50,477 nucleotides of DNA from the IMG/VR virus record IMGVR_UViG_2695420874_000004; one strand, 5' to 3'. The DNA comes from a virus (taxonomy: Duplodnaviria > Heunggongvirae > Uroviricota > Caudoviricetes). Made by a program: the position numbers and the translations under genes. The notes below the pieces were generated by a model that made no database searches, had not been told where the DNA came from, and saw only the letters and a program-made list of their open reading frames with translations. Positions 698-36,627 of the stretch are shown one piece after another (the first letter of the stretch is position 1; each line of letters opens with the position of its first letter).

Positions 698-1060
698 GGG
701 GCTGATTCTGGATTCGACGGGATTTGCGAAACCCAAGGTGCATGCCGAGGGGCGGTTGGCCTCGTAAAAAGCCGCAAAAAATAGTCGCAAACGACGAAAA
801 CTACGCTTTAGCAGCTTAATAACCTGCTTAGAGCCCTCTCTCCCTAGCCTCCGCTCTTAGGACGGGGATCAAGAGAGGTCAAACCCAAAAGAGATCGCGT
901 GGAAGCCCTGCCTGGGGTTGAAGCGTTAAAACTTAATCAGGCTAGTTTGTTAGTGGCGTGTCCGTCCGCAGCTGGCAAGCGAATGTAAAGACTGACTAAG
1001 CATGTAGTACCGAGGATGTAGGAATTTCGGACGCGGGTTCAACTCCCGCCAGCTCCACCA
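698..1060 (+). ncRNA. ssrA: tmRNA (transfer-messenger RNA, SsrA)
   Basis: Starts GGGGCTGATTCTGGATTCGACGGG and ends with a tRNA-like acceptor arm ...GGTTCAACTCCCGCCAGCTCCACCA; contains the tag reading frame GCAAACGACGAAAACTACGCTTTAGCAGCTTAA (ANDENYALAA*). 363 nt. Confidence 0.93.
1016..1060. repeat. attL core: 3' end of ssrA, repeated at 36413..36457
   Basis: 45-bp sequence ATGTAGGAATTTCGGACGCGGGTTCAACTCCCGCCAGCTCCACCA is present identically at 36413..36457. Confidence 0.75.
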
Positions 1061-1070
1061 AATAAATCAA

Positions 1071-17292: not shown

Positions 17293-17666
17293 GCTGCTAC
17301 CTGTTGCGCCATCTGATTACGGGTGATCCAGAAGGCAATAACGGTCAGTAGATAAAAGACCAGGGTAATAGCCCACCCCGTCCAGACGAGACTTACGACA
17401 ATCAGCAATCGCATCACCCAGCTGATAAATACGTTTTCTTTTCGGGTAATGGTCTTCAGCAAAGATACCCTCAACTCCTGCCAGAGCGAGCCATTCTTAA
17501 TTAACGCAGCCAGTGCTACCGGAATTGCCGCCCATGTCAGTAAACAGGCTACCCAAACGCCGGACGCTGCCAGTACCGGAAAAATCCCCTGCGGATACAC
17601 CATTGCTGCGATTAACAGCGCCATCCATAACATCAGAAACAGTCCGCTGATTAATTTCTTTTTCAT
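17289..17666 (-). CDS. lysA: LysA-like lysis regulator, multi-pass membrane protein
   Basis: Several hydrophobic helices; start set to ATG at 17664..17666 (MKKKLISG...). Confidence 0.75.
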   Translation of the reverse strand: MKKKLISGLFLMLWMALLIAAMVYPQGIFPVLAASGVWVACLLTWAAIPVALAALIKNGSLWQELRVSLLKTITRKENVFISWVMRLLIVVSLVWTGWAITLVFYLLTVIAFWITRNQMAQQVAA

Positions 17667-17667
17667 T

Positions 17668-18180
17668 TCAGTTTGCTCCCTGTAAGCACCAGGCCATCTC
17701 CCGCGCACGGCGGTTATCCAGCCCCTGATTAAACACACCTTTCACATACACCCAGCGCGGCAACTGTCGGCACGCATCCGCCCAGCGCCGCTGATTGAGC
17801 AATTTCACCAGCGTGGAGCTGCAGGCATTGCCTGTCCCCACGTTGAAGGCAAATGACACCACCGCGTCATACACTTTCTGCGGTGGCTGTTGCTTCACAC
17901 ACCTTTCCAGTGACCGCTCCACACGCAGCACGTTGGAGATAAGCCCTTCTGCTGCCTGTCGTTCCGTAATGGTTTTGCCGGGAATGACGCCCGACGTATT
18001 ACCAATGCCGTCAGTCCATACACCCGCGCTGCACTGATACGGCTGCAGACGACAGCCTTCGTAATCGGCAATCAGTTTCAGTCCCTCCACGGAGGTGTGA
18101 AGCTGCTGAAAACCCGGCAGCGTGGCAGCAATAGCCAGCACGACCCCGACAAGGCAGCGTTTAACGATTGATGGATTCAT
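17668..18180 (-). CDS. K: Endolysin (gpK-like lysozyme) with N-terminal hydrophobic SAR-like segment
   Basis: 170 aa; N-terminal CLVGVVLAIAATLPG hydrophobic stretch followed by a lysozyme-like domain with EG...D...T catalytic pattern. Confidence 0.85.
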   Translation of the reverse strand: MNPSIVKRCLVGVVLAIAATLPGFQQLHTSVEGLKLIADYEGCRLQPYQCSAGVWTDGIGNTSGVIPGKTITERQAAEGLISNVLRVERSLERCVKQQPPQKVYDAVVSFAFNVGTGNACSSTLVKLLNQRRWADACRQLPRWVYVKGVFNQGLDNRRAREMAWCLQGAN

Positions 18181-18376
18181 AATCCTCCCGCGAGATCTGC
18201 CCGTCGCGCAGAAGCTGGTAGGCTTTGTGTTTGTAGTACCAGTTGATAGCCAGCATCAGTACACCAATCATCAGGCCGCCCAGCGTTGAGGCATCCTTGA
18301 TGGACAAATCGCCCAGCCAGGCCAGCACGACGGCGATGCAATACGTGATAAAGGCGCTGATTCGCTCAAGCGTCAT
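18161..18376 (-). CDS. Y: Holin (gpY-like)
   Basis: 71-aa protein with two hydrophobic helices and a charged C-terminus, immediately upstream of the endolysin. Confidence 0.7.
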   Translation of the reverse strand: MTLERISAFITYCIAVVLAWLGDLSIKDASTLGGLMIGVLMLAINWYYKHKAYQLLRDGQISREDYESINR

Positions 18377-18379
18377 AAT

Positions 18380-18583
18380 TCAGTCCCATAGCTGGACGGT
18401 CTGCACGGTGGTGGTTGTCGGAATGTCCGGCAGCTCCACCTGCAGCCCGTGAGGTAAAAAGGGGCCGTATTCGGCAAGCCCCGGATTTGCCTTCAGTACC
18501 TGCTCCGTGACACCCTGCGTGCGCCCGTAATGACGCCAGCAAAGTGCGTCCACCGTGTCATACTGATGCGCACGCACTTTCAT
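18380..18583 (-). CDS. X: Tail protein gpX-like
   Basis: 67-aa ORF between L and Y, same size and position as P2 X. Confidence 0.75.
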   Translation of the reverse strand: MKVRAHQYDTVDALCWRHYGRTQGVTEQVLKANPGLAEYGPFLPHGLQVELPDIPTTTTVQTVQLWD

Positions 18584-19110
18584 CAGATAAGCTCCACTGT
18601 GCAGTGCGGCGCATCCTGCACCCGGCTGATGGCCCAGCGGGCGTCACGCCATAAATCACCGCTTGCTTCCGCCAGTTCCTCGCCTCGCTTCGCACCGGAT
18701 GCCGTGGCGTCATAGTCCTGGTAACGTTCGTTGAGCATGGCGCGTGCCCAGCAGTAAACCGCGTTGAAATAGTGCTGAATGCGCTCGCTTTTGCCGTCCA
18801 GTTGTTCCGTCGGGACTTCTGCCAGCGAGGCATACCCCAGCATCTGCTGGCGTCTGCGAAACTCATACAGCTCTGCGTTGACCTCCGAAATTGCCGACAG
18901 CGCAACCTGCTTTAAACGCGGCTGCGTCACCGTGCCGTCAGTGCGCATGACACTGCGAAACTCCGACAGGTCCACATCAGGCCAGAACGGCGTATTTCTG
19001 ATGATTTCCGCCTGTTCCGGTGCCTGTTCTGGCGCAACAAACTTCATGCTGCTTTCTCCTGAAATAAAGGGCGGTGGACGGGGTTTTGATGTGGCAGTGC
19101 CTTTCGCCAC
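18583..19110 (-). CDS. L: Head completion protein gpL-like
   Basis: Recognised as P2 L-like; N-terminal extent uncertain. Confidence 0.8.
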   Translation of the reverse strand: MAKGTATSKPRPPPFISGESSMKFVAPEQAPEQAEIIRNTPFWPDVDLSEFRSVMRTDGTVTQPRLKQVALSAISEVNAELYEFRRRQQMLGYASLAEVPTEQLDGKSERIQHYFNAVYCWARAMLNERYQDYDATASGAKRGEELAEASGDLWRDARWAISRVQDAPHCTVELI

Positions 19111-19142
19111 CCCGTGCCGCCCGTGCGCGGGGGCACGTTCTG

Positions 19143-19793
19143 TCAGCGGCTGTCATTGCGCAGTCTGCGCTCCAGCTGCTGTTTGTCTTTTTTCACGCCA
19201 CAGCGGGGATCGAGCTGTAACGCATGGTTGAGATGATTAAGGGCGGAAGCCGGATTGCTTTCACTCAGGACAGCGCCAATCGCTTTATGCAGACGCGCCC
19301 GTGACTGGTCCGGCATATCCAGACCGTCTGTCAGCTCCAGCGTCTGCAGCAACAGATCGGCATCAAAGCCGGTGGCGGCAAGCATTGCGCTCTGCGCTGC
19401 ATCTGCCATTTCCTCTGCCAGCACGGTCTGCACGTTGCGGTTACCCAGCGGCATCACCCAGCCATGACGCAGGGCATGACGCCCGATCTCCAGCGCCCCG
19501 GCATAATCTCCGGCATCAATGCGCCACAGCATCACGTACATCAGCACGTCATCCTGTTGAGCGCCTCCGGCAGCCAGGACGCCCTCCGCCCAGGCGGCAT
19601 ATTTCGGCAGCAGCTCCACCTTGATTTCCGCTTTTTTCACCGTGGACTGAACGCCCTTGAGACGGCGGCGGTCTTCCGTCAGTTGCAGCAGCATCAGGTC
19701 ATAGCCCGACGCGTGGCGAACGCTGCCGCCCTCGCGGGCGGCCTGTTCAGCCTGAACGCGCAGGCGATGCTGCCGTGCGGGACTCAGGCTCAT
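19143..19793 (-). CDS. M: Terminase small (endonuclease) subunit gpM-like
   Basis: 216-aa ORF recognised as P2 M-like, downstream of the capsid gene. Confidence 0.85.
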   Translation of the reverse strand: MSLSPARQHRLRVQAEQAAREGGSVRHASGYDLMLLQLTEDRRRLKGVQSTVKKAEIKVELLPKYAAWAEGVLAAGGAQQDDVLMYVMLWRIDAGDYAGALEIGRHALRHGWVMPLGNRNVQTVLAEEMADAAQSAMLAATGFDADLLLQTLELTDGLDMPDQSRARLHKAIGAVLSESNPASALNHLNHALQLDPRCGVKKDKQQLERRLRNDSR

Positions 19794-19796
19794 GGT

Positions 19797-20855
19797 TTAC
19801 GCTCCGGCTTCTGCTGCGGCGGCGCTGAAGTCGCCAATCTGGATGTTTTCCACCAGTGCGGCGCAGCGGTAGTCCTCAACCACGTAGGCTTCGTTAACGG
19901 ATTCAAAATTTTCAATCCGGTCACGTTTCGGGTTGTCGATAACTGAACGGCGGCGGGTGTCTTCCTGCCAGTAGATGGACAAGTTATCCAAACGGGTGAT
20001 CAGCAGCGCATTCGGCGGGAAGAACGGCGCACGCACGGCCTGCAGACCGCCCATGCGTTTCTGACTGATAATCATATCGGCTGCCAATTTTTCACTGTTT
20101 TCCTGCTCTTTGTTGACCAGCGGGAAATACTTGTCAGACAGCAGTTCACGACCGCAAATCACCACCAGATCGTCATCGTCCTGGTAGACCACGTCGATAA
20201 GCTCATTGACCGCATCCATCACCACAGCGTCCAGGTTGGCATATTCGCCACCTTTCCCGACTTTCACCGCACCCGGTGTGGTTTCGCCGCCCGTGGTGGT
20301 GCTGCCCATGACGTGATCCGGTGCATCCTCACGGATTTTCTGCAGCCAGCCTTTGTTCACATCCTGCAGCAGCGGGTTTTCACTACGGTTGGAGGTTTTC
20401 GCACGCTTCACGCCGTTAAAGCCGATCATGATGCGGTCCAGTGCCTGACGTTTCACGATGGCGTCACGGATACGCACCTGGAAATCCTGAAACTTCGCCC
20501 ACAGGTCCAGCTTCGCGTAGGTCAGCACCGTGTCAAAGTTGGTCTGCTCGCATTTATATTCCACATCGACCATCAGCGTCGGATCGACAGGTTCACGCTC
20601 TTTCGCGGTGGTGTCAGTGGTTCCGGCAATGGTGCTGCCAACACCCAGCCCCAGCAGCTGACCGGACTGCTCAGTCACTGGCGTGACGTTAATCAGCGTC
20701 AGGAAAGCGGCGGACTGCTGGATCTGGTCTTCCAGCGTCTGCTGCACAGACGGCTCCACAGTGAATTTGCTGGACAGTTCTTCAACTGCCACACCGTTCA
20801 GACGCGCCAGCTGCTGCAGGTAAGCGTTAAAAGCAAAGCGGGTATTCTTCTTCAT
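19797..20855 (-). CDS. N: Major capsid protein gpN-like
   Basis: 352-aa ORF recognised as P2 N-like. Confidence 0.92.
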   Translation of the reverse strand: MKKNTRFAFNAYLQQLARLNGVAVEELSSKFTVEPSVQQTLEDQIQQSAAFLTLINVTPVTEQSGQLLGLGVGSTIAGTTDTTAKEREPVDPTLMVDVEYKCEQTNFDTVLTYAKLDLWAKFQDFQVRIRDAIVKRQALDRIMIGFNGVKRAKTSNRSENPLLQDVNKGWLQKIREDAPDHVMGSTTTGGETTPGAVKVGKGGEYANLDAVVMDAVNELIDVVYQDDDDLVVICGRELLSDKYFPLVNKEQENSEKLAADMIISQKRMGGLQAVRAPFFPPNALLITRLDNLSIYWQEDTRRRSVIDNPKRDRIENFESVNEAYVVEDYRCAALVENIQIGDFSAAAAEAGA

Positions 20856-20871
20856 CGGGTTTTGTGCTCCA

Positions 20872-21705
20872 TCAGCAATTGGTCAGAGTGTCAGCGGGGG
20901 CGTTACCGCCTGTTGCACGCTGACGGTAGTCCTGGCGGCTGTCTTCATGACTCAGCTTGTCCACCAGTTCGTTAAAGGCGGTTTGCTGTGCCTGCAGGGC
21001 AGTCTCCAGCTCAGACAGGCGTTCTTCCTGCTCAGACAGGGATTTTTCAGTGCGTGCGCTCAGGTTCTGCTGCTCAGTGGCGACCAGCTCCACGGCCTTA
21101 TGCACATCAGAGAACCGGGCGTCATCGGACTGCTCTTTTTTGGTAAATAGCGCCGTGACGCGGGCAAACAGGGACGGTTTGTCGTCCTGGATTTCTTCCA
21201 GTTCGATCACCGTTTCCTCTGCAGCGGTAAAGAGATTGGCAGGATTCTGCTTGCGGTTTGCCAGCGGGTTATGGGCTGCACTGGCGCTGAATGTCAGCAT
21301 TTCCGTACCCAGACTGGCAGGATCATCAGTGGCAGCCAGGCCGACCAGGTAGGCTTTGCCCGTATCAGCGAACTTCGGGCTGACTTCCATAGAGGTGAAT
21401 AATTTCTGGCCTTTTTTCACCAGTTCCACCAGGGACTCCGTTGGCTCAACGTCGGCATACAGCGCCATCTTGCCTGCCAGCGGACCTTCCGTGATTTCTT
21501 CAGCAAACAGCGCCGTCACCTTGCCGTAGCGGTTAAAGGTGCTGTCCGGCAGATAAGACTTGATGTGCTCAAGGTTAATCAGCGCGGTATACACCGCCGG
21601 GTTGTAGTTGGCTGCCATCTGTTCCAGCCATTCACGCTGGATTTCGCGTCCGTCGGTGGTGGCACCTTCCACCCCGATGCGAAAACGCTTTGCTTTCACT
21701 GTCAT
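20872..21705 (-). CDS. O: Capsid scaffolding protein gpO-like
   Basis: 277-aa ORF with coiled-coil acidic C-terminus, recognised as P2 O-like. Confidence 0.88.
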   Translation of the reverse strand: MTVKAKRFRIGVEGATTDGREIQREWLEQMAANYNPAVYTALINLEHIKSYLPDSTFNRYGKVTALFAEEITEGPLAGKMALYADVEPTESLVELVKKGQKLFTSMEVSPKFADTGKAYLVGLAATDDPASLGTEMLTFSASAAHNPLANRKQNPANLFTAAEETVIELEEIQDDKPSLFARVTALFTKKEQSDDARFSDVHKAVELVATEQQNLSARTEKSLSEQEERLSELETALQAQQTAFNELVDKLSHEDSRQDYRQRATGGNAPADTLTNC

Positions 21706-21783
21706 GAGCCGTGCTCCGTTAGAAAAAACTTACTGGAGCCTTATGGTTGCGGTGATGGGGGCAGTGAAACAATGCTCGGTATT

Positions 21784-21801
21784 TGTACCGACAACCACAC
21801 A
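21784..21801. promoter_or_regulatory. Ogr-type late promoter dyad (TGT-N12-ACA) in the divergent O/P intergenic region
   Basis: TGTACCGACAACCACACA about 80 bp upstream of the O start; shares TTGTACCG...CACACAAA with the FI-upstream site. Confidence 0.45.
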
Positions 21802-21847
21802 AACCGCAGGCGGGGAAAGCCTTCATTCAAGGCTGTAGGTTTGTGCC

Positions 21848-23614
21848 ATGAACACCACACTGACACCCGCAGATCTCGATCCCCGTCGGCAGGCCATGCT
21901 GCTGTACTTTCAGGGATACCGCGTAGCCCGCATTGCTGAAATGCTGGGCGAGAAAGTTGCAACCGTTCACAGCTGGAAAAAACGCGACAAGTGGGGTGAC
22001 TATGGGCCGCTGGATCAGATGCAGCTCACCACCGCCGCACGCTACTGCCAGCTCATTATGAAGGAGCACAAAGAAGGGAAAGATTTCAAAGAGATTGACC
22101 TGCTGGCGCGCCAGTCGGAGCGCCATGCGCGGATCGGCAAGTTTAACAATGGCGGCAACGAAGCCGACTTAAACCCTAACGTCGCCAACCGCAACAAAGG
22201 CCCGCGCCGTCAGCCGGAAAAGAACGTTTTCACCGATGAACAGATTGAGAAGCTGGAAGAAATCTTCCATTCCTCCATGTTCAACTACCAGCGCCACTGG
22301 TGGGAAGCCGGAAAAACCAACCGCATCCGCAACCTGCTGAAGTCACGCCAGATCGGCGCGACCTTCTATTTTGCCCGTGAAGCCCTGATTGACGCCCTGC
22401 TAACCGGGCGTAACCAGATTTTCCTTTCCGCCAGCAAGGCTCAGGCCCACGTCTTTAAGCAGTACATCATCGACTTCGCCAAAGAAGTGGAGGTGGAGCT
22501 GAAAGGCGATCCGATGGTGCTTCCTAACGGGGCCACGCTGTACTTCCTCGGCACCAATGCCCGCACGGCCCAGAGTTACCACGGCAACCTGTATCTGGAT
22601 GAATATTTCTGGATACCGAAATTCCAGGAGCTGCGCAAAGTGGCTTCCGGTATGGCTATTCACAAAAAATGGCGACAAACCTATTTTTCCACGCCATCCA
22701 GCCTGACCCACAGTGCTTATCCGTTCTGGTCCGGTGCGCTGTTCAACCGAGGGCGCAACAAAGCCGATAAGGTGGACATCGACCTGTCCCACAGCAATCT
22801 AGCCCCCGGCCTTCTGTGCGCAGACGGGCAGTACCGCCAGATAGTCACTGTGGAAGATGCGGTGCGCGGAGGCTGTAACCTGTTCGACCTCGACCAGTTG
22901 CGCATGGAGTACAGCCCGGACGAATACCAGAACCTGCTGATGTGTGAGTTCGTGGACGATCTCGCGTCCGTGTTCCCGCTCAGCGAGCTGCAGGCGTGCA
23001 TGGTGGACAGTTGGGAAGTCTGGACCGACTTTCATGCACTGGCGCTGCGCCCGTTTGGCTGGCGCGAAGTGTGGATCGGTTATGACCCGGCAAAAGGTAC
23101 GCAGAACGGCGACAGCGCCGGATGCGTGGTGGTGGCACCGCCAGCCGTGCCGGGCGGTAAGTTCCGCATTCTTGAGCGTCACCAGTGGCGCGGGATGGAC
23201 TTCCGCGCCCAGGCTGACGCCATCAAAAAACTGACTGAACAGTACAACGTGACCTACATCGGTATCGACTCGACAGGTGTCGGCCACGGGGTTTACGAGA
23301 ACGTGAAAGCGTTTTTTCCAGCCGTCCGGGAGTTTGTCTACAACCCCAACGTTAAAAACGCCCTGGTACTCAAGGCCTACGACATTATCAGCCACCGCCG
23401 TCTGGAGTTTGACGCCGGACACACCGACATAGCGCAGTCATTTATGGCAATCCGTCGCGCCACCACCGCCAGCGGCAACCGCCCGACCTATGAAGCCAGC
23501 CGCAGCGAAGAAGCCAGCCATGCAGATCTGGCCTGGGCAACAATGCACGCACTGTTTAACGAACCGCTGCAGGGCGAGTCCGCCAATACCAGCAATATTG
23601 TGGAGATTTTTTGA
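21848..23614 (+). CDS. P: Terminase large (ATPase) subunit gpP-like
   Basis: 588-aa ORF recognised as P2 P-like. Confidence 0.93.
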   Translation: MNTTLTPADLDPRRQAMLLYFQGYRVARIAEMLGEKVATVHSWKKRDKWGDYGPLDQMQLTTAARYCQLIMKEHKEGKDFKEIDLLARQSERHARIGKFNNGGNEADLNPNVANRNKGPRRQPEKNVFTDEQIEKLEEIFHSSMFNYQRHWWEAGKTNRIRNLLKSRQIGATFYFAREALIDALLTGRNQIFLSASKAQAHVFKQYIIDFAKEVEVELKGDPMVLPNGATLYFLGTNARTAQSYHGNLYLDEYFWIPKFQELRKVASGMAIHKKWRQTYFSTPSSLTHSAYPFWSGALFNRGRNKADKVDIDLSHSNLAPGLLCADGQYRQIVTVEDAVRGGCNLFDLDQLRMEYSPDEYQNLLMCEFVDDLASVFPLSELQACMVDSWEVWTDFHALALRPFGWREVWIGYDPAKGTQNGDSAGCVVVAPPAVPGGKFRILERHQWRGMDFRAQADAIKKLTEQYNVTYIGIDSTGVGHGVYENVKAFFPAVREFVYNPNVKNALVLKAYDIISHRRLEFDAGHTDIAQSFMAIRRATTASGNRPTYEASRSEEASHADLAWATMHALFNEPLQGESANTSNIVEIF

Positions 23615-24645
23615 TGGGAAAGAGTAAGAAGAACCGCGCTGCATCGACGAACCAGATCCAGCCTAAAAGCCAAACTTCAGCCGAAGCATTCAGCTTCGGT
23701 GATCCCGTTCCTGTTCTGGACCGCCGCGAACTGCTGGACTATGTGGAATGCGTACAAACAGATCGCTGGTATGAGCCGCCAGTAAGCTTTGACGGACTGG
23801 CGCGCACCTTCCGCGCTGCCGTGCATCACAGTTCCCCGATTGCAGTAAAGTGCAACATTCTGACTAGTACCTATATCCCTCATCCTCTGCTCAGCCAGCA
23901 AGCTTTTTCGCGTTTTGTGCAGGACTATCTGGTATTTGGCAACGCCTATCTGGAGAAACGCACGAACCGCTTCGGTGAAGTGATCGCCCTTGAACCTGCG
24001 CTGGCAAAATACACCCGACGCGGATTAGACCTGGATACCTACTGGTTTGTGCAATACGGTATGACAACCCAGCCGTATCAGTTCACGAAAGGCAGCATTT
24101 TTCATCTGATGGAACCGGATATTAATCAGGAGATCTACGGCCTGCCCGGTTATCTTTCTGCCATTCCGTCAGCCCTGCTCAACGAGTCCGCCACGCTGTT
24201 CCGTCGCAAGTATTACATTAACGGCAGTCATGCGGGCTTTATCATGTACATGACCGATGCCGCGCAAAACCAGGAGGATGTAAACAACCTCCGCAACGCA
24301 ATGAAAAGCGCCAAAGGACCAGGCAACTTCCGTAACCTGTTTATGTACTCGCCTAACGGCAAAAAGGACGGGCTTCAGATCATCCCGTTGTCAGAAGTCG
24401 CGGCGAAGGATGAGTTTCTGAACATCAAGAACGTGAGCCGGGATGACATGATGGCGGCGCATCGTGTGCCACCGCAAATGATGGGGATTATGCCTAATAA
24501 TGTCGGGGGGTTTGGGGATGTGGAGAAGGCGAGCCTGGTGTTTGTACGTAACGAGTTAATACCGTTACAAAAAAGAATGATGGAAATAAATAAATTGGTA
24601 AGTGAGAACATTGTTAAATTTGATAGTTATAAACTAGCTACTTAA
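23611..24645 (+). CDS. Q: Portal protein gpQ-like
   Basis: 344-aa ORF recognised as P2 Q-like, overlapping the P stop. Confidence 0.92.
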   Translation: MMGKSKKNRAASTNQIQPKSQTSAEAFSFGDPVPVLDRRELLDYVECVQTDRWYEPPVSFDGLARTFRAAVHHSSPIAVKCNILTSTYIPHPLLSQQAFSRFVQDYLVFGNAYLEKRTNRFGEVIALEPALAKYTRRGLDLDTYWFVQYGMTTQPYQFTKGSIFHLMEPDINQEIYGLPGYLSAIPSALLNESATLFRRKYYINGSHAGFIMYMTDAAQNQEDVNNLRNAMKSAKGPGNFRNLFMYSPNGKKDGLQIIPLSEVAAKDEFLNIKNVSRDDMMAAHRVPPQMMGIMPNNVGGFGDVEKASLVFVRNELIPLQKRMMEINKLVSENIVKFDSYKLAT

Positions 24646-24752
24646 CGTAATAACTAAATGAGGTTCTTTAACACAACTAAAAAAAGTTATTAATAGCCAG
24701 CAGTTTTTATGAATTTCTTCAGCGTGCAGATACACGCTGAAGATGCAAAAAA

Positions 24753-25442
24753 TCATATGAGACGACCGTCTGGACTTCTGTTACCTAAATGTAATTCACA
24801 GAGTATCCACCTAATCACATCAGGTCGAATTAACCCAGCTACAAAAACCGAATTCCAATTATTTTTACCTTTATGTTTTTCATCCAACAGCAACAACTCG
24901 CGAGTCAACAACTCATATACATCGCTATAAGTAGAAAGACTCTTATTCAGTCCTCTAATAACAAGCTCAGGATATAAGTAAAACGACTCCCATTGTTCAG
25001 ACAAATACCCCTTAATATTATTCTTGATAACAACATTATCAAGATGATACTTAACATTGTTATATTCTGGTGACATTGGGTCAATTATGATTTTTACATC
25101 AATTGTAGGTGTTCGCCCTAATTTAGAAAAATTAGCACATATTAATCTTTGTTTTAATATATTATCAAAATATGGATGCAGCATCCGATGGCCTGCAGAA
25201 TTAGCTATAGTAGTACTTTTGAAAGTATTACATTTGCAAGCAGGAACCAAATTCTTAGTGAATAAAGAAAATTCTGGATAGTTTTCCTTGGGTAAAACAT
25301 GATCCAAAGTCCCGCTATGCATTGAACCACACATTGGACATAGAGAGTTAGAATTAGCTGCTCTTATATCATCAATTATAGATAAACACTTTGCGGGATT
25401 GTTATAATAATATCTCAAAGCTTCAGCAATATTGTTACTCAA
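24753..25442 (-). CDS. HNH endonuclease-like protein (candidate Septu PtuB-like effector)
   Basis: CPMCGSMHSGTLDHVLPKENYPEF...NLVPACKCN has the C-x2-C / DH / N / C-x-C-N arrangement of HNH nucleases; AT-rich; no ATG at the 5' end (probable TTG start). Confidence 0.7.
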   Translation of the reverse strand: MSNNIAEALRYYYNNPAKCLSIIDDIRAANSNSLCPMCGSMHSGTLDHVLPKENYPEFSLFTKNLVPACKCNTFKSTTIANSAGHRMLHPYFDNILKQRLICANFSKLGRTPTIDVKIIIDPMSPEYNNVKYHLDNVVIKNNIKGYLSEQWESFYLYPELVIRGLNKSLSTYSDVYELLTRELLLLDEKHKGKNNWNSVFVAGLIRPDVIRWILCELHLGNRSPDGRLI

Positions 25443-25616
25443 TACGCCACAAGAATTGACATTAAGATACCCTTTATTCTTTATGTACGATCTATATGCA
25501 TTAAGTATAAATGTATCCTGTTCATTCAGAACAGAATGATGTTTTAATCTCTTATTTGCAGATAGTTTTTAAATGCAGAATAATCTTTAAAAACAGGTCT
25601 TTTTAATTTATTCATT

Positions 25617-27266
25617 TCAATTGCCCATTTCATTTCTCAACGCAGTTAATACATTAAGTGATAAGTCCTCGCTATATTTAGATTCAACATCATCCCAAGA
25701 CATATTCTTTGCAATTATATTATTTTTTACTTTATTTAAAATTTGAGTTGGTTCACTCTCACCGAAAACAAAATATGAGATATTTCCTATATTCGCCCCA
25801 AAAGTACTCAATCTCGGTTTTTCGCTAACAATTACCCCATCATCTCGTCTTCTGAGTATTGTCACTTGCTCCTTAAAAACCTCCCGAACAAGATAAACCG
25901 AATGCGTTGCTATGATAGCTGAAGAGCCTGTCTTTTCTAATAAATTATCAAGCAATGCCATAAATTTATTAATAAATGAAGGATGGAGATGTGTTTCTGG
26001 CTCATCTATTAATAGAAGAGTCCCATTCTCAATATACAAACAGACTTGTACACAAAACTTAATAAACGATATTTCCCCACTACTCAAAGGATAACATTTA
26101 TTTTCAATAAGCCTCAAAGGCTCGCCAGAGAGAATAATTTCAGAATATAATGATAGTCTGGATTCTTCGCCTCGAGAATTAAGCTCATTTAATTTAACAA
26201 ATGGTGAATTTTCACCGTTACATTTGATTACTAAATCGTTGTTACTATTTAGAACACTCAGTGCATCAACAAATATATTCCACCTTTGATTATAGCCGAT
26301 AGCGTCGTTACTCCTCGCTAGTTGCACTATTAAATCATTCAAGTTTAATTTGGATTTTGATTCACGATTTAAAGTCAATCTTTTGTACCATATCAATGAT
26401 TTTATTCTTTTATCGGTTGGAAATGAACACTTACTTTCATTTGTTGGAGAAAAAGCAATGAGCCTACTAATTTGAATTCGTTCTTCAATGCTCACACCGT
26501 TAGAATCAACTACAGCCACCAAATTATCCTTTCCTTTAATCGCAGCCAATGCGATTTCTCTAAGCGTTTGGCTTTTTCCTACACCATTCTCGCCTATAAT
26601 TATGGAAATTCTTTTTGGTAAATCATGCTCGTGATCAAAATTAAAAACATAAGATACATCTTCTTCATTAACTTTATTCGAATAGCTAATCTTGATGTGC
26701 TGTGATAAATTACCCAACTCCTCATATTGAATACCGGAAAGAACTGTTCCTGCATTTTTGAAAGTAAAATACGACTCAGACTCTCTAATGAAAGATTTAT
26801 TAAAGATATCAGAAGAGATTGCTTTTTTCCTCAAATTCTCTGCACTAGCGTCACTTTTCTTAGAAACAACATCATTAATGAAATTTAATATATATTTGGA
26901 TTCATTCACCCCAAAAAATCTTACTAGTCTTCGATAATTATTCATATCCTGAAGCATGACAAAATAATCATTAAACCCCTCATCCTTTAAATTAGATTCT
27001 TCCTTTTTCTTCACTCGCCTTATCAGTTCTGCTTTTCCATTTCGTTCCTCCTCTGAATTCAAAAAACCAATATAACCATTCAGTGAAATTATATCCTTAC
27101 ACTCTTTTTTATTAAAAATAGATATTTCGACTCTACTCAAATATCCAAAATCATTCCAATCGCTTCTTGATGGGACTATTTTTATATAATTACCAGAATC
27201 AGATATCTGTTGATTATTTGTAATTAAAAAATATAAACTATAATTTTTATTTTTCTTGACTAACAT
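25617..27266 (-). CDS. ABC/AAA15-type ATPase (candidate Septu PtuA-like) with about 200-aa N-terminal extension
   Basis: Walker A IIIGENGVGKSQTL, ABC-signature-like LSSGE, Walker B/D-loop LLLIDEPETHLHP; AT-rich. Confidence 0.8.
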   Translation of the reverse strand: MLVKKNKNYSLYFLITNNQQISDSGNYIKIVPSRSDWNDFGYLSRVEISIFNKKECKDIISLNGYIGFLNSEEERNGKAELIRRVKKKEESNLKDEGFNDYFVMLQDMNNYRRLVRFFGVNESKYILNFINDVVSKKSDASAENLRKKAISSDIFNKSFIRESESYFTFKNAGTVLSGIQYEELGNLSQHIKISYSNKVNEEDVSYVFNFDHEHDLPKRISIIIGENGVGKSQTLREIALAAIKGKDNLVAVVDSNGVSIEERIQISRLIAFSPTNESKCSFPTDKRIKSLIWYKRLTLNRESKSKLNLNDLIVQLARSNDAIGYNQRWNIFVDALSVLNSNNDLVIKCNGENSPFVKLNELNSRGEESRLSLYSEIILSGEPLRLIENKCYPLSSGEISFIKFCVQVCLYIENGTLLLIDEPETHLHPSFINKFMALLDNLLEKTGSSAIIATHSVYLVREVFKEQVTILRRRDDGVIVSEKPRLSTFGANIGNISYFVFGESEPTQILNKVKNNIIAKNMSWDDVESKYSEDLSLNVLTALRNEMGN

Positions 27267-27335
27267 TATTACCCTCTCACTTCATTAGTGATGATTTATT
27301 TTGGAATTATTTTACACACTTATACCTAGCGCGCA

Positions 27336-27354
27336 ATCGTATCCCCGCCACGCC
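27336..27354. other. Candidate cos site (cohesive-end core)
   Basis: Minus-strand GGCGTGGCGGGGATACGAT resembles the 19-nt P2/186 cohesive end as I remember it (first 13 nt identical to my recollection of 186); GC-rich patch in AT-rich surroundings. Identification from memory only. Confidence 0.35.
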
Positions 27355-27558
27355 TGCCCGCTTTATGTAGTGGTTTTCATGCACCTGCATGATCTACGCA
27401 AAAGCCCGCCAGTTCTGGCGGGCCTTAGCAAAAACGATCCTCAAACGATCATGCGATCTCATGCGGCATAGACATGCACTACAGAGCTAACGCCTCGCAA
27501 GGGCTCGTTGTTCAACCTTGCTGACGCCAGAAGCAAGTTCAGACGCCAGCAACGTTTC

Positions 27559-27792
27559 TTAATGCAGCCAGCTGTCGTCTTCCCACACCTTCTGCATAAT
27601 TTTCATCACTTGTTTTCTTTCTTCGTCCAGTTGCAATCCGGTAAGTTCCACACCGTTAGAGCTACCTTTGCGGATACGAATTACCGTTTTGGGATACAGA
27701 GGGCGCAGATTGCGGTAAAGCTCGGATTCAAGGGCGTCCAGGGTAGACTGGCTAATCTTCTGCTCTTTATCGATCATTATTTCAATGCGCAT
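27559..27792 (-). CDS. DinI-like protein
   Basis: 77 aa: MRIEIMIDKEQ...DALESELYRNL...WEDDSWLH parallels E. coli DinI (MRIEVTIAK...DALAGELSRRI...WESADDWF). Confidence 0.75.
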   Translation of the reverse strand: MRIEIMIDKEQKISQSTLDALESELYRNLRPLYPKTVIRIRKGSSNGVELTGLQLDEERKQVMKIMQKVWEDDSWLH

Positions 27793-27803
27793 AAAAAGTC
27801 ACC

Positions 27804-27992
27804 TCAACTGATGACATCCATTGAGCGGTTGTATTCGTGGGTTCTGATTTTTGCCATGAGTTCATCTGTTAGTTCAGAAACCCACTGCAAAGCCAGCCCC
27901 TTCTCTTCATCACTACACTCACTAGCCGCTACAAGCTTAAGAAAAAAATCAATGCGCTGGAGCTTCAAAGACTCCAAAAAATAGTCCTGCAT
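27804..27992 (-). CDS. Small hypothetical protein upstream of the DinI-like gene
   Basis: Short ORF between A and the DinI-like gene on the same strand; start chosen at the internal ATG (MQDYFLES...). Confidence 0.4.
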   Translation of the reverse strand: MQDYFLESLKLQRIDFFLKLVAASECSDEEKGLALQWVSELTDELMAKIRTHEYNRSMDVIS

Positions 27993-28145
27993 CTTTCCTC
28001 CTATGACACCACAAGAAATACTGTATACATAACCACTGTTTATATTTACAGTATATAATAATCTTACTGATGTAAAACGTTTTTTTACGTTCATCAGCCT
28101 GATATGCCTTGTATTATTAAGAGCACGAATTGTTAACCCGCGTAA

Positions 28146-30587
28146 TTAATACAGGTTCCGCCACTTATCATCTTCCCGCAAACGCTGGTTCCGATAGAAG
28201 ATACGCAAGCCTGCTCCTGACGGAATACTGCCACCGCGAAGGAGCAAATCGACTTCTTTCTCGCTGCCATCAAATCCTCTGGACTTCAGTTCATAGACGA
28301 GCTGCTGATGCTGATGATCTGTAATTCGCTGTTTGTAGTCTTTACGCCGTTTCGGTTTCACCAAGCGCAACCTTGCTGCCAGCCCCCGGCGATCTTTTTT
28401 GCTCATACTGTGCAGGTAATCGTGCAATTCCTTGTCATCCATGCGGGTAATGTCCGTTCTGGTGCCCCCATCAGCTGATTTGTCTTTCCCTTGTTGGTAC
28501 AAATTTTCAGCAAGGGGACAGTTATTGCCACGAGTCCAAGGGGCGCAAGCGCCCTGGTCGGCTGCCGCCTCCTGAACGTCAACGGCTTTACGAACCATTT
28601 TCCACTTCACTGCATGAGTGCAGATCTTGCCCTCTGCAATGGGTGACCAGATGCCATAAATACGAATACCGTGATCGCCATAGGCGGTCGGCTCTTCGTT
28701 GATTTCATAAGCGGTTCTGATGAGGTGATATTTACGGGGAACCAGTACGCCGCCCTGCTTCATGATGTAGGTGGCAAAGCAACCAGCATCAGCTGCAGCC
28801 AGAATGGCATCAAGGCGCGGGTTATCCAGTACCGGCGCACCTGCTTTTTTGTCACCCTGTTGCCTTGCCGCCTGACCAGCCAGCAATCGCAGTTCACGGT
28901 AAGCCTGACGCCCCGGAATGCCAAAGAAGCGGAATTGCTGAACACGATGCAGAGACGCCCAGGCATTAACGTATTCAGCGTTATCACGCAGAGATTTACC
29001 CGTTTCCTTGCTGATCTCGCCAGCCAGACCACGCCCGTCAATGTTCTTACTGATATATTTCGCGATGTAGCTTGTCGGCGTTCCTTTACGCGGGTTAATC
29101 AACTCAGACTTAAAGCGCGGCCCAGTGTTATTGCCCAGCTCCTCGCGGTCTTCACGGATGGCAAACTTACGCAGTAATGCAGTGATGGCGCGGCGGTCTT
29201 TTTTGCGCATAAAACACAACAGGTGCCAGTGAACTGTACCGTCATGATGCGGCTCAGCCACCCGCACGCCATACCAGCGCAATCCGGCTTTGTGCATCGC
29301 CTTACGAAATGCAGCAAACATGCCGACCAGATAGTCGCTGCTTTGTCTTACCGTCGAGTTTGTCCAGGTCGGGTTGGGTCTGCCGTTATTGAGCGTGGAA
29401 TGGAAACGCGACGGACAGGTGATAGTGTAGAAAACGGCGCAGTCACTGCGCATTTCCGCGATAAGCTCCAGACCTTTAACACAGGCCATCATCTCATTGC
29501 GGCGATGCGCCGGGTTGCTGCTGCTGGCGTTTACCACATCTTCCATATCCAGCGTGTCGCCGTCTTCGTTCACCAGTTCATGAGAACGGAAAAACTCCAG
29601 CGACTTACGGCGCTGCTCACGTTTATGCATCACGGCTTCATAGCTGACATAGGGGGATGCTTTTTTGCTGACCAGGCAGACAGCACGCAACTGCTCTTCC
29701 CGCCATTCGCAACGCATCTTCCATAATTTCCGATACCACCAGTCGGCACACAACATACGCGCCAGCGAACCCGGAATGAGTTCATAGGGCACGGGTTTAC
29801 GGCGGTTTCTTTTCCGACGGAGTTGCTCAAACGCAGGCGGAATAACATCCAGACGCAGGGTTTCCGCTGCCACCTTTTCCCATGTTTTGCGGATTTCTTC
29901 TGGCTTAACGTCATCGGTGGCATACAAATCACCACAAGCGGCATCAAGGCACATGCTCATATGCGCAGCGACAAGGGTAGACAGGCGCTTCACCTGATCC
30001 TGACTCATTTCAGGCAGGATAAGCAGGCCATCCAGCCCTTCATGGCTTGCCATAAAGCGAAAAGAAGTGGATAGCTGACAGTCGCGGACATGCTCCAGTC
30101 GTTCCAGACATGGCTTAATCGTCTCACGCAAATAGCGGGAATAAGCCTTTGGCCTGCCCAGGCTGCTGAAATATTCAATACGTTGCATCAGCGGCTTGCT
30201 GATATGGGAAGGCTGGGCGTTGACGTCAGCCAGAATGACCATGTCTGGATTAAAACGCTGCTGCTCATGCGCCAGCTTTGCCCGGCTAATGAGCTTATCC
30301 TGCTCCATTTCGCGCTGGACAGGATCACGGGATTCATTAAAGAAATAACGCTCCCAGACCTGATCACTCAGTGCCTCGCGGCGCAGTTGTTCCTGCTCGT
30401 TATCGGCAGCGTACAGAGTGATCAGGTTTGAAAGTGCAGAAACCGGCGCAACTTCCGCCGGGTCCAGATAAGGGTTAATGGCCTTTTTTGGGCTGTTCCA
30501 TGAGAATGCTGCGGCGACCTCGTTAAAGCCGCTGCAGTTGTTCATATCAGCATGGCTCATGCACGCACTCCGTACACGGCGGAACAA
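28146..30587 (-). CDS. A: Replication initiation protein gpA-like (rolling-circle nickase)
   Basis: Large ORF with [15 protein letters not shown] and [12 protein letters not shown] motifs typical of P2 A; exact start uncertain (several Met codons overlap the dam stop). Confidence 0.9.
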
Positions 30588-31414
30588 TCCACGCCACGCG
30601 AAGGATCAAATCCTACCCAGCAGCGCGGCCCGGAAACAGCAATGATTTCTGTTGCAGATTTACTCTCACCAGCTGCCACGCCGATGCTGCGTTTTGCCTT
30701 GATGTAGTGGTGAGTAAAATTGCGATACAGCGAACGGATCAGGGATGTGTCACTGTTAGAAATAATGACCGGATATCCTTCTGATGACCGATGTTCAAGA
30801 ACAGATGCCAGGTGATACTGGTCATCTTCAGTGAAACCATCAGTGTGATAGCCTGAAAACGTACCGTCATAAGGCGGATCGCAATACACCACATCCCCCG
30901 CGTGCAACATCGCCAGCGTTTCATCGAAGCTGGCGCAGATAAACGTTGCCCGCTGGGCTTTTACTGCAAATGTACGAATTTCTTTTTCAGGAAAATACGG
31001 ATTTTTATAATTACCGTAGGGAATGTTGAAATGCCCGCTCTTGTTATAGCGACATAAACCACGGTAACCGTGACGATTGAGATACAGGAAATATATCGCT
31101 TTCATGAAATCAGTAATTTCAGTTGAGTAATTAAACTCCTTCCTTATGTTGTAATAATCCATCTCCCTGTTTGCGTTCTCAAATAAAACTCTGGCGCGAG
31201 ATATAAACGATTCACAATCAGCGGCAACCTTTTTATAGAGGTTGATTAAATCAGGATTAATATCCGCAACCAGATAGCTGGGATAATCCGTCTCCATCAT
31301 CACAGCACAGGAACCCGCGAAAGGTTCAACCAGTCGCGGGCCAGCAGGAAGATGTTTTTTCAGTTCGGACATTATGGCAGTTTTATTTCCCGCCCATTTC
31401 AGGATGGTGCTCAT
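30557..31414 (-). CDS. DNA adenine methyltransferase (Dam family, orphan)
   Basis: LKWAGNK near the N-terminus and DPPY motif; start at ATG overlapping the upstream stop (ATGA). Confidence 0.85.
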
Positions 31415-31638
31415 ACAGCACCTCCGTTGTAATGTTTGCCTTTCAGCTCTGCGATTTCCTGACAGGTAATGCAAAGCTGCACACCCGGAATGGCACGGCG
31501 GCGTGCTGGCGGAATTGGCGCTTCACACTCAATGCAAAGCACGCGGGACACGCCCGGCGTTTTGGCACGGGCAGCACGGATATGGCGTTGGCGTTCTTCT
31601 TCAACGCGCTGCTGTACGAGATCCATTGCATCAGCCAT
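31411..31638 (-). CDS. TraR/DksA-family C4 zinc-finger protein
   Basis: CIECEAPIPPARRRAIPGVQLCITCQ: four-cysteine finger typical of the DksA/TraR family found in P2-like early regions. Confidence 0.7.
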   Translation of the reverse strand: MADAMDLVQQRVEEERQRHIRAARAKTPGVSRVLCIECEAPIPPARRRAIPGVQLCITCQEIAELKGKHYNGGAV

Positions 31639-31877
31639 TAGTGGATCTCCTGCGCTTCGTTCTGGATTGCTTCAGCAGTCACACGAAGCAGTTCTGCCGC
31701 TTCGACGTGGGTTAGCTGGCGGGATGTGATATGACACGCCAGGCTATCAAGGCGAGCTGCCATTGCTTCAGCCCTTGCCCGGCGTTCTTCCAGACGAGCC
31801 TCTGTCAGTAAAATATTTAGCCCTGCGTCATCCGGTCCGGTTTGGGTCGAGAGGGTTTCAATATTACGCATAATCAA
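31638..31877 (-). CDS. Hypothetical early-region protein
   Basis: 79-aa ORF on the same strand in the early operon. Confidence 0.5.
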   Translation of the reverse strand: MIMRNIETLSTQTGPDDAGLNILLTEARLEERRARAEAMAARLDSLACHITSRQLTHVEAAELLRVTAEAIQNEAQEIH

Positions 31878-31938
31878 TTCTCCTGAATTTAGATAAAGGG
31901 ATGCCCGGCGGGTTTACGCCATTAATTTCATTAGTTGG

Positions 31939-32280
31939 TTAATTCGGCATGGTTAGCCGTCTGGGAAATAAGCTCACCACTGCACGAAAATGATTCATTG
32001 CTTTAATCAACTCCCGCTTTTCGTCAGTGGTCAGCTCATTAATGCTGATGCTATGACGTTCAGCTGGAATTTTTGCCATAAAGAATATGGCAGCCAGTGC
32101 CCGTTTATTTTGTTCGCTATTAATATCGCGTAGATCACGCATATCTTTAATAAACCGCTCAAGCTCTGACTCAATATTCAGACCAAAAACTTTCGCCCTT
32201 AACTCCGCAATGTGATTAAGTCCATTCAGGCGTTCACCGGGGCCTAATGGAACAGTCGCCGCAGCGCCATTAATTGCCAT
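31939..32280 (-). CDS. Hypothetical early-region protein
   Basis: 113-aa ORF on the same strand in the early operon. Confidence 0.5.
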   Translation of the reverse strand: MAINGAAATVPLGPGERLNGLNHIAELRAKVFGLNIESELERFIKDMRDLRDINSEQNKRALAAIFFMAKIPAERHSISINELTTDEKRELIKAMNHFRAVVSLFPRRLTMPN

Positions 32281-32302
32281 AATTCATATTCCCAAAACGC
32301 AA

Positions 32303-32527
32303 CTATCGCTCTTTGTTCTTACGGTAACGCTCAAGAGGAGATATATTTTTTCGTATCATCTCTTTAACCTGCTCTCCCCGTAAAAACGTCCCATCCTTTA
32401 GCGTGAAAAAGTAACTGCCATCGCCCGACAACGACGGATAACAACAGAGCAAATCATCTTCAGATACTGAATAACTCTCCCCTCTGTAACGAAACTGATA
32501 AACCACTTCACTTTCCGCTGCATACAT
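32303..32527 (-). CDS. Hypothetical early-region protein
   Basis: 74-aa ORF; overlaps an alternative-frame ORF, so the call is tentative. Confidence 0.4.
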   Translation of the reverse strand: MYAAESEVVYQFRYRGESYSVSEDDLLCCYPSLSGDGSYFFTLKDGTFLRGEQVKEMIRKNISPLERYRKNKER

Positions 32528-32701
32528 TTTGACTTTCTCCGTTTCCCCGTGGTCAATTCAGACAGCAATTCATCTTGTGAACGGCACGGATGCCAGCGTT
32601 TACCATCCTCACCCATGATCCAGCCGTGACCGTAGTGCATTGCCGGACTTTGTTTTACCAGCAGCGATGCAAATGATGGTTCTTTCGTCAGCATAAGCAC
32701 C

Positions 32702-33211
32702 TCACAGCAATCCGAATGAAGCACCGAGGCCAGTTACGGTATCAACTGCACTTGCCATCGCAGGATTAGCCTGTAAACGGGCCTGCAATGAAACAGCAGC
32801 CAGCGCCATCAGTCGTGTAACAGAGTTAATGCTGCTGATCGCATCACGACGGCCTGCACTGGTTTTTACATCGCCAGAAACCGCACCAGCCGCGACACGC
32901 CCTATCTCTGCAGTTGCACTCATGACGTAATGCGGCAGTTTCTCTTTTGCCACCTCATTAATCGGAACACATGGCAGACAATGAATCTGTGCCAGAAAAC
33001 CATCTACCAGCGTTGAATCTTCAGTCAGATCGGTAAGTAGCCAGATATCTCGTGCAGTGAGCTGATGCGGTTGTTCCGGGTTCAGCTTGTTACGCAGCGT
33101 CTGGACGTTCATTCCCGCGAGTTCTGCTAGCTTCGCCATATTGTGACGTAGTGCAAAAGCTCTACAGGCTTCATCAAAATGCGGATGTTTGGAAATCTTG
33201 TAATCAAACAT
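32702..33211 (-). CDS. B: Replication protein gpB-like
   Basis: 169-aa ORF recognised as P2 B-like, downstream of the cox-like gene. Confidence 0.8.
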   Translation of the reverse strand: MFDYKISKHPHFDEACRAFALRHNMAKLAELAGMNVQTLRNKLNPEQPHQLTARDIWLLTDLTEDSTLVDGFLAQIHCLPCVPINEVAKEKLPHYVMSATAEIGRVAAGAVSGDVKTSAGRRDAISSINSVTRLMALAAVSLQARLQANPAMASAVDTVTGLGASFGLL

Positions 33212-33243
33212 GGTGCTCCCTTAGAAAGTTCCCATAATTGAAA

Positions 33244-35264: not shown

Positions 35265-36296
35265 ATGGAAAAAAGCATTAGCACATTTATGTACCTATCC
35301 GTTTTATTAGGTTGTATATTCTTATTTATAAAATATCGACTTTATGTTCTCGATCATAGAAGCTTGTTCCAACAACCCTTGTTCTGGGCTGCAATAGGCC
35401 TACCTTTATTCACCAGCCTTTACTTTGGTTCTTTTGTCTGGATAGATAAAATACACTCTTTTAGTCTTACAAGTCACGGTTATGAGAGATTTTTAGATAT
35501 CTCGAAATTACCATTACTCATCCTTGCATCTGCAGTACCTTTAGTTTCAATAGTAAACAACCTACACAGAACCAAACAAACAGAAAAACAGATCTCAGAG
35601 GCAGAAAGGAAAAACAGGGTAGATTTATATTACAACCACATGAAATTTCATCTTGATTTATATAAAAAAATCGAAGGGAAAAGAATAGGCAGCTACTACC
35701 CGGTTCAGGAAGCTCAAGCTGAAGCAATCTACCAACATTTTATAAAACATCCACAAGAACTATATAGAAAAGCATACCCACAATCTACGCCTGATGATTC
35801 TCAACAATTAGATATTAATGAGCAATTTGTTATTGATTTACACAAATGTTGGGTAGAAATCAACGCAAGACTCAAGCAATTATCCGAGAGTGAAAATCAA
35901 ATACATCCTACAGAGGAACTTTGCACAACAAAGATGAGAATATTTGTAGGAGTTATGATTATTTATGAAAAAACTTGTAAACTGTTGTGTTTAGGTGGAT
36001 TTCATTATAAAAAGTCATTTGTAATAAATGATAGTTATAATAAATACCAAGTTTATTCACCATTTTATGATTTTGGCACTCTGTACGAATCACTGCAATC
36101 CTTAGAAGAGATAACCTACGCCTTCTTGGATACTTGCAGAAATGAAGTGGTAAACTTGTACTTCCCTATAGAAGATAAAATTTTGATATATGGTGAAGGG
36201 ATTCTAGAGAATTGGTTCAAGTATTCTCAGTTCTTGATCACTATAGCTTATCAACCCGCCAAGATGTCTCGCTTACCCCAGCTGAGACGCGATTGA
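35265..36296 (+). CDS. Hypothetical membrane-anchored cargo protein between int and attR
   Basis: 343-aa AT-rich ORF starting 2 bp after the int stop; two N-terminal hydrophobic helices (LSVLLGCIFLFI, LFWAAIGLPLFTSLYFGSFVW) and a large soluble C-terminal part. Confidence 0.65.
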   Translation: MEKSISTFMYLSVLLGCIFLFIKYRLYVLDHRSLFQQPLFWAAIGLPLFTSLYFGSFVWIDKIHSFSLTSHGYERFLDISKLPLLILASAVPLVSIVNNLHRTKQTEKQISEAERKNRVDLYYNHMKFHLDLYKKIEGKRIGSYYPVQEAQAEAIYQHFIKHPQELYRKAYPQSTPDDSQQLDINEQFVIDLHKCWVEINARLKQLSESENQIHPTEELCTTKMRIFVGVMIIYEKTCKLLCLGGFHYKKSFVINDSYNKYQVYSPFYDFGTLYESLQSLEEITYAFLDTCRNEVVNLYFPIEDKILIYGEGILENWFKYSQFLITIAYQPAKMSRLPQLRRD

Positions 36297-36412: not shown

Positions 36413-36457
36413 ATGTAGGAATTTCGGACGCGGGTTCAACTCCCGCCAGCTCCACCA
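36413..36457. repeat. attR of the P2-like prophage / attL of the downstream island: partial ssrA 3' end
   Basis: Exact 45-bp copy of 1016..1060. Confidence 0.75.
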
Positions 36458-36582
36458 ATTTTTGATATATTGAAGTTCAGTGAAGTCTATCAAGCCCGCA
36501 TGGAACCAGCCTTGCGGGCTTTTTTACGTCTATAGTAGTCTACCGAGAATTGCTAGAATCTACTCGTTATGGCACCCTTTTT

Positions 36583-36627
36583 GGGACCCAACACAAAGGG
36601 TCCAAAACATGAGGGTCCCAAACATGG
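36583..36627. repeat. Three tandem 15-bp imperfect repeats overlapping the island integrase start codon
   Basis: GGGACCCAACACAAA / GGGTCCAAAACATGA / GGGTCCCAAACATGG in direct succession; the third contains the int ATG. Confidence 0.4.

Follow-up and report, generated by a model that had tools for sequence, protein, structure and literature searches.

The question raised by this locus is where a P2-like prophage carrying an ATPase/HNH cassette next to its portal gene has its DNA-packaging site (cos), and on which side of that site the cassette lies. The original prediction had proposed as cos a 19-nt minus-strand stretch resembling the P2/186 cohesive end, located 2.7 kb past the portal gene Q, which would place the cassette between Q and cos rather than at the gpA-side old/tin position. 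In the window, that is, the whole stretch of DNA analysed here (50,477 nt), comparison with P2-family genomes allows the segment 27329-27489 to be assigned with high confidence as the predicted cos region of a 186/Fels-2-type prophage, complete and 35.4 kb long, with the cassette inserted in a portal-side slot.

The element is a P2-family prophage integrated at ssrA (Table 1). Genes M, N, O, P and Q are all full length, the gpM homologue being equal in length and position to the protein annotated as "terminase endonuclease subunit" in CP049845, and the structural genes are collinear with the annotated Escherichia coli prophage of that sequence, with only 4 gap openings in 17 kb of alignment. 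Genes for CII, CI and an integrase are also carried by the element.

Table 1. Position, strand and basis of assignment of the features of the prophage and its cos region (window coordinates).
Feature	Position	Strand	Basis
tmRNA gene (ssrA)	698-1060		
attL, 46-nt 3' end of ssrA	1016..1061	+	repeat
gpM homologue, terminase small/endonuclease subunit, intact, 216 aa	19143..19793	-	
N	19797-20855	-	
O	20872-21705	-	
gpP homologue, terminase large subunit, intact, 588 aa	21848..23614	+	Pfam Terminase_6N, Terminase_6C, Terminase_5
Portal gene Q	23611..24645	+	Pfam Phage_portal
HNH-like nuclease partner	24753..25616	-	PADLOC PDC-M01B 8.7e-32; RefSeq name "HNH endonuclease"
ABC-type (AAA_21/AAA_15) ATPase, 549 aa, first cassette gene	25617..27266	-	Pfam AAA_21 3.5e-16
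AT-rich leader, cos core to ATPase start codon	27267..27328	-	
55-bp cos core of P2-family phages and P4 satellite	27329..27383	-	junction alignment
Predicted 19-nt 5' cohesive-end sequence, GGCGTGGCGGGGATACGAT	27336..27354	-	homology to 186, P2 and SEN8 ends
Conserved gpA-side cos flank with repeated TGCAT/GCATGA-type motifs	27384..27489	-	conservation profile
GC-rich hairpin with U-tract, intrinsic terminator candidate	27400..27424	-	-29.1 kcal/mol, z = -3.95
DinI-family gene, 77 aa	27559..27792	-	Pfam DinI 6.6e-23; NCBIfam DinI
62-aa ORF with upstream AGGAGG ribosome-binding site, first gene of the SOS operon	27804..27992	-	
LexA-box-like sequence CTGTAAATATAAACAG (CTGT-N8-ACAG), upstream of the small ORF and the DinI gene	28036..28051	-	read from sequence
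Replication gene A	28146..30587	-	Pfam Phage_GPA 5.2e-126
attR, exact 46-nt repeat of attL	36413..36458	+	repeat

Several additional features of the locus were observed. Just outside attR, a second integrase with an arm-binding domain (36480-37853, plus strand) suggests a tandem element at ssrA. A 343-aa ORF without Pfam match (35265-36296, plus strand) lies between the prophage integrase and attR, an interval mentioned as a minor defence slot in a 2026 NAR paper. Another ORF without Pfam match (304 aa, 14957-15871, plus strand) is found on the opposite strand inside the tail/baseplate block. The alignment with CP049845 breaks there, at 14891-15995, and a DUF5677 gene occupies the equivalent place in that sequence; the site of the 304-aa ORF is probably another variable cargo slot.

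The cassette is a 2.6-kb AT-rich two-gene module, convergent with Q, and differs clearly in composition from the phage backbone (GC 0.27-0.35 across 24600-27300, about 32% for the cassette itself, versus 0.50-0.60). Its ATPase gene is transcribed away from cos, toward Q, with the start codon 69 nt past the overhang. The best PADLOC match of the encoded protein was PDC-M01A (2.2e-55), PtuA being also matched (9e-32), and the score against the NCBIfam PtuA equivalog was 41.6 bits, the cut-off being 500. The partner protein was assigned as HNH-like because of a CPMC..DH..N..CKCN motif (His-Me-finger-like), its match to PADLOC PDC-M01B and its RefSeq name. No Pfam HNH domain was detected in either the truncated or the intact 287-aa partner protein, and PtuB was absent from the 25 listed of 44 PADLOC matches to it, all 25 being PDC-M01B. 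From these similarities, the cassette appears to be a Septu-like ATPase/HNH module with a putative defence function. The idea that its ATPase is a displaced old homologue was rejected, since the likeness to P2 Old is confined to ABC ATPase motifs (32% over 116 aa, E = 5e-9, covering only the region from Walker B to the H-loop).

The HNH-like gene encodes 287 aa and abuts the ATPase gene both in CP049845 and in an IMG/VR locus (L018). A run of A6 in these two sequences reads A5 in the window near position 25571, a 1-nt deletion that shifts the frame after codon 16 and leaves a 229-aa ORF (24753-25442) starting from an internal TTG. This frameshift is either a real inactivation or a single homopolymer sequencing error; a noisy assembly is an unlikely source, given the few gap openings found against CP049845. 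The L018 cassette is identical to that of the window. The end of Q, the cassette and cos (24300-27800) are 99.6% identical to CP049845, whereas the surrounding backbone (15995-33214) shows approximately 95-97% identity, which is consistent with recent transfer of the module between different backbones. In addition, a 10-bp inverted repeat, CTTCAGCGTG-cagata-CACGCTGAAG, is located at 24717-24742, where Q and the HNH-like gene converge, between their stop codons; this repeat may act as a bidirectional terminator replacing tQ/tW, but it has no canonical T-tract and was not flagged by the terminator scan.

For the comparison of cohesive ends, circular junctions of P2, 186 and P4 were built from records whose ends are annotated as cosL, cosR or cos; the ends of these three references are experimentally defined. 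The plus strand of the window reads ATCGTATCCCCGCCACGCC at the candidate site, the reverse complement being the predicted cohesive end GGCGTGGCGGGGATACGAT. This 19-mer is identical at 16 of 19 positions to the cohesive end of 186 (GGCGTGGCGGGGAAAGCAT), at 14 of 19 to that of P2 (GGCGAGGCGGGGAAAGCAC), and at 18 of 19 to the annotated "putative cos site" of Salmonella phage SEN8 (bases 1-19 of its record). The three substitutions relative to 186 fall in the 3' third of the overhang (ATACGAT versus AAAGCAT). No experimentally mapped end was found for the ATACGAT/ATACGAG overhang variant, that of SEN8 being annotated only as putative; the records of SEN8 and Erwinia phage EtG are linearised exactly at this boundary, ending with the base that precedes the predicted overhang.

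Similarity extends to both flanks of the 19-mer. A 55-bp conserved core is attributed by later papers to Ziermann & Calendar (1990), and in the core aligned here the 19-nt overhang is preceded by 29 nt on the gpA side and followed by 7 nt (TGCGCGC) toward Q. The whole of this core is conserved in the window when aligned with P2, 186 and P4: the gpA-side flank reads ATGCAGGTGCATGAAAACCACTACATAAAGCGGGCA in the window versus ATGCAACTGCATTAAAACCGACCCATAAAGTGGGCA in 186, and on the portal side YGCGCGC continues in all four sequences. The candidate thus matches the published P2 and 186 cos sequences in the 19-mer and in both flanks, as the original prediction had required, and its position between the gpA side and the portal gene is that of a P2-family genome encoding a gpM plus gpP terminase. 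The alignment supports the candidate as a homologue of the P2/186/P4 cos, and the 19-nt stretch is very probably the real packaging site of a complete P2/186-type prophage. By analogy with the reference phages, the nicks would fall between 27355 and 27354 on the minus strand and between 27335 and 27336 on the plus strand.

Among the alternative explanations, the one that survives best is that the site is a true cos homologue that is no longer used, the prophage being cryptic or defective and the site a relic. The HNH frameshift, which is unique to the window, means that the element carries at least one disruptive change, or else a sequencing error, and the second integrase just outside attR implies a complex locus history. 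Against this, the packaging and head genes are full length, the att repeats are exact, the cos intergenic segment (27267-27558) and its counterpart in CP049845 are 100% identical, the 55-bp core is conserved throughout, and the alignment with CP049845 is nearly free of gaps. A relic is consequently regarded as improbable, and a functional cos remains by far the preferred reading.

A chance GC-rich resemblance, with the real cos lying elsewhere, for example directly after Q, was considered of negligible probability. This explanation draws on the fact that the cos of P2 and 186 lies 170-180 nt from the portal stop codon, whereas 2,690 nt separate the Q stop codon (24645) from the 19-mer in the window. 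However, nothing resembling a cos is present in the 107 AT-rich nucleotides directly 3' of the Q stop, in agreement with the earlier observation that no GC-rich cos-like sequence follows Q. A 31-nt degenerate core (GGGCRGGCGWGGCGGGGANNNNNNYGCGCGC) was built from P2, 186 and P4 together with the window itself; its single occurrence in the window is at 27329-27359 on the minus strand, and none of 100 dinucleotide-preserving shuffles contained it. The shorter 13-mer GGCGWGGCGGGGA has the cos candidate as its sole perfect match in the window and four further hits, each with 2 mismatches and without the flanks; the total of five hits, against 1.27 expected, was equalled or exceeded in 3 of 100 shuffles and is thus a modest excess over chance. 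Furthermore, approximately 135 nt of flank are conserved with the cos regions of P2-family phages. A cos directly after Q, at the P2/186 position, is effectively refuted by the uniqueness of the core and the AT-rich sequence following this gene.

The homology to P2-family cos regions, which supports the site at 27336-27354, is markedly asymmetric. Conservation on the gpA side extends well beyond the 55-bp core, and homology with distant relatives begins at approximately 27477. A profile of 113 non-redundant cos regions showed conserved blocks on this side at -135..-95 (the TGCAT/GCATGA repeats), -70..-55 (the terminator hairpin) and -40..-1, and loss of conservation on the portal side by about +10, the loci having been chosen by a pattern that fixes positions -5..+25, so that the independent evidence comes from the outer flanks. 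At 8-12 nt past the overhang the window stops resembling 186 and P2: it continues as TGCGCGCTAGGT and then turns into AT-rich DNA, departing from 186 and P2 at the same boundary as P4. The terminase of P2 packages satellite P4, and what the two have in common is limited to the overhang with some 29 nt before it and 7 nt after it. The gpA-side flank is therefore a candidate terminase-binding region, and if the recognition determinants are located on this side, as the profile suggests, the DNA just past the core on the portal side would be free to vary.

On these grounds, the following sequence of events can be proposed for the preferred reading. After induction, the terminase formed by the gpM and gpP homologues would recognise the gpA-side flank and introduce nicks staggered by 19 nt, giving a virion DNA left end that begins 5'-GGCGTGGCGGGGATACGAT. 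On the portal side, the conserved signal would stop about 7-10 nt after the overhang, as in P4, leaving the adjacent DNA free to vary, and in the window the usual cos-Q terminator spacer of approximately 150-210 nt would have been replaced by the 2.6-kb Septu-like module. That cos and cassette together constitute a separate mobile element (a P4-like satellite or an integrated island) inside the prophage is scarcely credible: such satellites have the same cos core and defence cargo on the same side, and 8 P4-like loci were found among the at least 120 IMG/VR matches listed, but in the window the site is flanked by gpA and DinI upstream and by Q downstream, the order seen in other P2-type loci, and it is the sole cos-like one in a 35.4-kb element that, as a phage, needs one. 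No psu, delta or P4-integrase homologues were found next to the window cos, and an origin from a P4-like satellite was discarded on this ground.

With respect to transcription around the packaging site, the terminator candidate located 46 nt before the overhang closes the DinI/SOS operon, in a position analogous to that of t95b in 186. No consensus sigma-70 promoter above the scan threshold was found between cos and the ATPase start codon; the promoter of the cassette presumably lies in the AT-rich leader.

The interval between gpA and cos (approximately 790 nt) contains this SOS operon only, and no old/tin homologues were found in it as cargo. The DinI gene corresponds to the DinI-like part of 186 tum, and the 62-aa ORF is a 189-nt hypothetical gene in CP049845, present also in Fels-2 and 813R9. 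The operator-like sequence CTGTAAATATAAACAG is a putative LexA box, analogous to the LexA site at 186 p95. Together with the DinI/tum-like operon, it suggests that the prophage is inducible by the SOS response. A mechanical call of a 96-aa ORF starting at 28094 overlaps this operator and is probably too long. An interval of about the same size recurs in about ten relatives among the IMG/VR matches listed. The segment on the gpA side is a 186-type p95/tum SOS operon belonging to the backbone of the lineage, not cargo that has replaced old/tin. Regarding the original prediction, its claim that the cassette sits between Q and cos, and not at the old/tin position, is borne out by the junction alignment and the gene order; the DinI-like and small genes do lie on the gpA side of cos, as it had proposed, but are not stand-ins for old/tin.

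To what extent the slot between cos and Q is occupied in other elements was determined in a scan of IMG/VR with the core pattern, which yielded at least 120 loci, 95 of them with a downstream portal gene among the matches listed. The gap between cos and Q measured 154-213 nt in 49 of these 95 loci, which were considered empty, as in P2 and 186, and 374-4398 nt (median 1779 nt) in the remaining 46, considered occupied. The longest ORF of the occupied slot was directed away from cos, as in the window, in 41 of 45 loci among the matches listed. The sizes of the portal-side and gpA-side gaps were anticorrelated (Spearman -0.61, p = 4e-8, n = 68, IMG/VR matches listed), in a sample chosen by pattern and with statistics that ignore phylogeny. 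Occupancy also followed the type of overhang: among the matches listed, the portal side was occupied in 22 of 26 loci with ATACGAG/T overhangs, and empty in 27 of 31 with P2-type overhangs. These data suggest that the gpA-gpQ hotspot is in effect a pair of slots, one on either side of cos.

The flanks of the region were matched in 1,284 of 5,426 complete E. coli genomes, the cassette in three only. Other cargo found between the portal and DinI genes in E. coli includes DUF262, P-loop NTPase, TIR and HEPN genes, ParA with RelA/SpoT, and retron Ec67, and genes between cos and the portal gene are present also in Fels-2, SEN8, 500465-1 and 813R9. The window has the attributes expected of a cargo slot, in that the usual spacer is replaced by unrelated DNA and the gap measures 2,690 nt, the cargo differs among close relatives, and its GC content is atypical of the backbone.

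The composition of the 3' end of Q gives indications about the other boundary of the module. In the window, the last ~25 codons of this gene (about 24568-24645) have the AT-rich composition of the cargo (GC 0.24 in the tail versus 0.51 in the body), and this tail still aligns with other portals at the protein level. The same was observed in the 46 occupied loci among the matches listed, in which the last 75 nt of Q have a GC content of 0.378, close to that of the slot (0.381) and below that of the Q body (0.524). The tail reached 0.521 in 47 empty loci among the matches listed (occupied versus empty, Mann-Whitney p = 1.6e-13), and four empty-slot loci of the same overhang lineage as the window, also among the matches listed, showed a normal tail GC of 0.48-0.55. 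The GC content of the tail follows that of the slot across the occupied loci (rho = 0.57, IMG/VR matches listed), this evidence being correlative and without phylogenetic correction. From the match between Q tail and slot, the limits of the cargo modules seem to be the cos core on one side and, on the other, a junction within the 3' end of Q, which fits the idea of recombination at cos ends.

A tentative model, which we hold to be possible but short of probable, is that the two sides of cos are distinct, lineage-specific and largely alternative sub-hotspots, with portal-side modules being swapped between a boundary at the cos end and a crossover in the Q tail. If true, each cargo module would bring its own AT-rich portal C-terminal tail, the portal C-terminus would belong to the exchanged module, and recombination initiated at cos ends, raised as speculation in the discussion of Rousset et al. 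(2022), would gain sequence-level support.

The placement of cos fixes the map of the virion genome, in which the Septu-like cassette comes at the very left end of the DNA that is packaged. It is also useful for annotating P2-like prophages and for mining them for defence systems, given that the gpA-gpQ "hotspot" would consist of two slots separated by cos. What is known about packaging and defence hotspots in the P2 family is unchanged by this finding: the cos placement is correct, and the arrangement is already known and common.

Indeed, cargo in this position has been described repeatedly. Dodd & Egan (1996) described the position of the cargo for retron Ec67 and Ec86 insertions in 186-related prophages, and a cosL-gpQ cargo slot has been noted for phiCTX and phiRSY1, with the suggestion that it is a foreign-gene hotspot of P2-like phages, the works of Simon et al. 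and Askora et al. being part of this earlier literature. The cargo of these cases is a retron or a toxin gene, whereas that of the window is an ABC ATPase plus HNH-like pair; retron Ec67 was found in the same slot, with the same flanks as in the window, in one E. coli prophage (H125). More recently, gpA-gpQ was presented as the main defence hotspot, adjacent to cos, by Rousset et al. (2022) and in the 2026 NAR paper, and the slot of the window falls within this interval; in the accessible text of both, it is treated as a single hotspot carrying diverse anti-phage systems, without separation of the two sides of cos.

Compared with 186 and P2, the cos of the window has the same 19-nt register and two-sided core (…ATGCA..TGCAT.AAAACC….AAAG.GGGC, overhang, TGCGCGC), it is likewise placed between the gpA-side operon and the portal gene, and the terminase gene set is the same. 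Further differences are that the portal gene of 186 and P2 is separated from cos by a GC-rich spacer of approximately 170 nt with the tQ/tW terminator, where the window carries 2.6 kb of cargo, and that P2 bears old/tin on the gpA side of cos, whereas the cassette of the window lies on the portal side. The resemblance to P4 concerns the cosL side, where the satellite has the overhang and 7 nt in common with P2, followed by unrelated AT-rich DNA and the variable gop-beta-cII genes. The defence genes of P4 read away from cos, in the same position and orientation as the cassette, but P4 has psu upstream of cos and lacks structural genes, while the element in the window is a full phage. As for Septu (PtuA ATPase plus PtuB HNH), the two-gene order of an ABC-type ATPase followed by an HNH-like nuclease is shared with the window, from which it differs in that the window ATPase scores below the NCBIfam PtuA cut-off, its partner has no Pfam HNH domain and its nuclease gene is frameshifted.

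A close correspondence was also found with Fels-2 and SEN8 (Felsduovirus) and with Escherichia phages 500465-1 and vB_EcoM-813R9, in which the segment from cos to DinI is 92-99% identical to that of the window. All four have the same backbone, namely gpA, small ORF, DinI, cos, cargo and portal, and differ in what fills the slot: a 565-aa ORF in Fels-2, a hypothetical protein plus an HNH protein in SEN8, a TIR protein in 500465-1 and a Hypoth_Ymh protein in 813R9.
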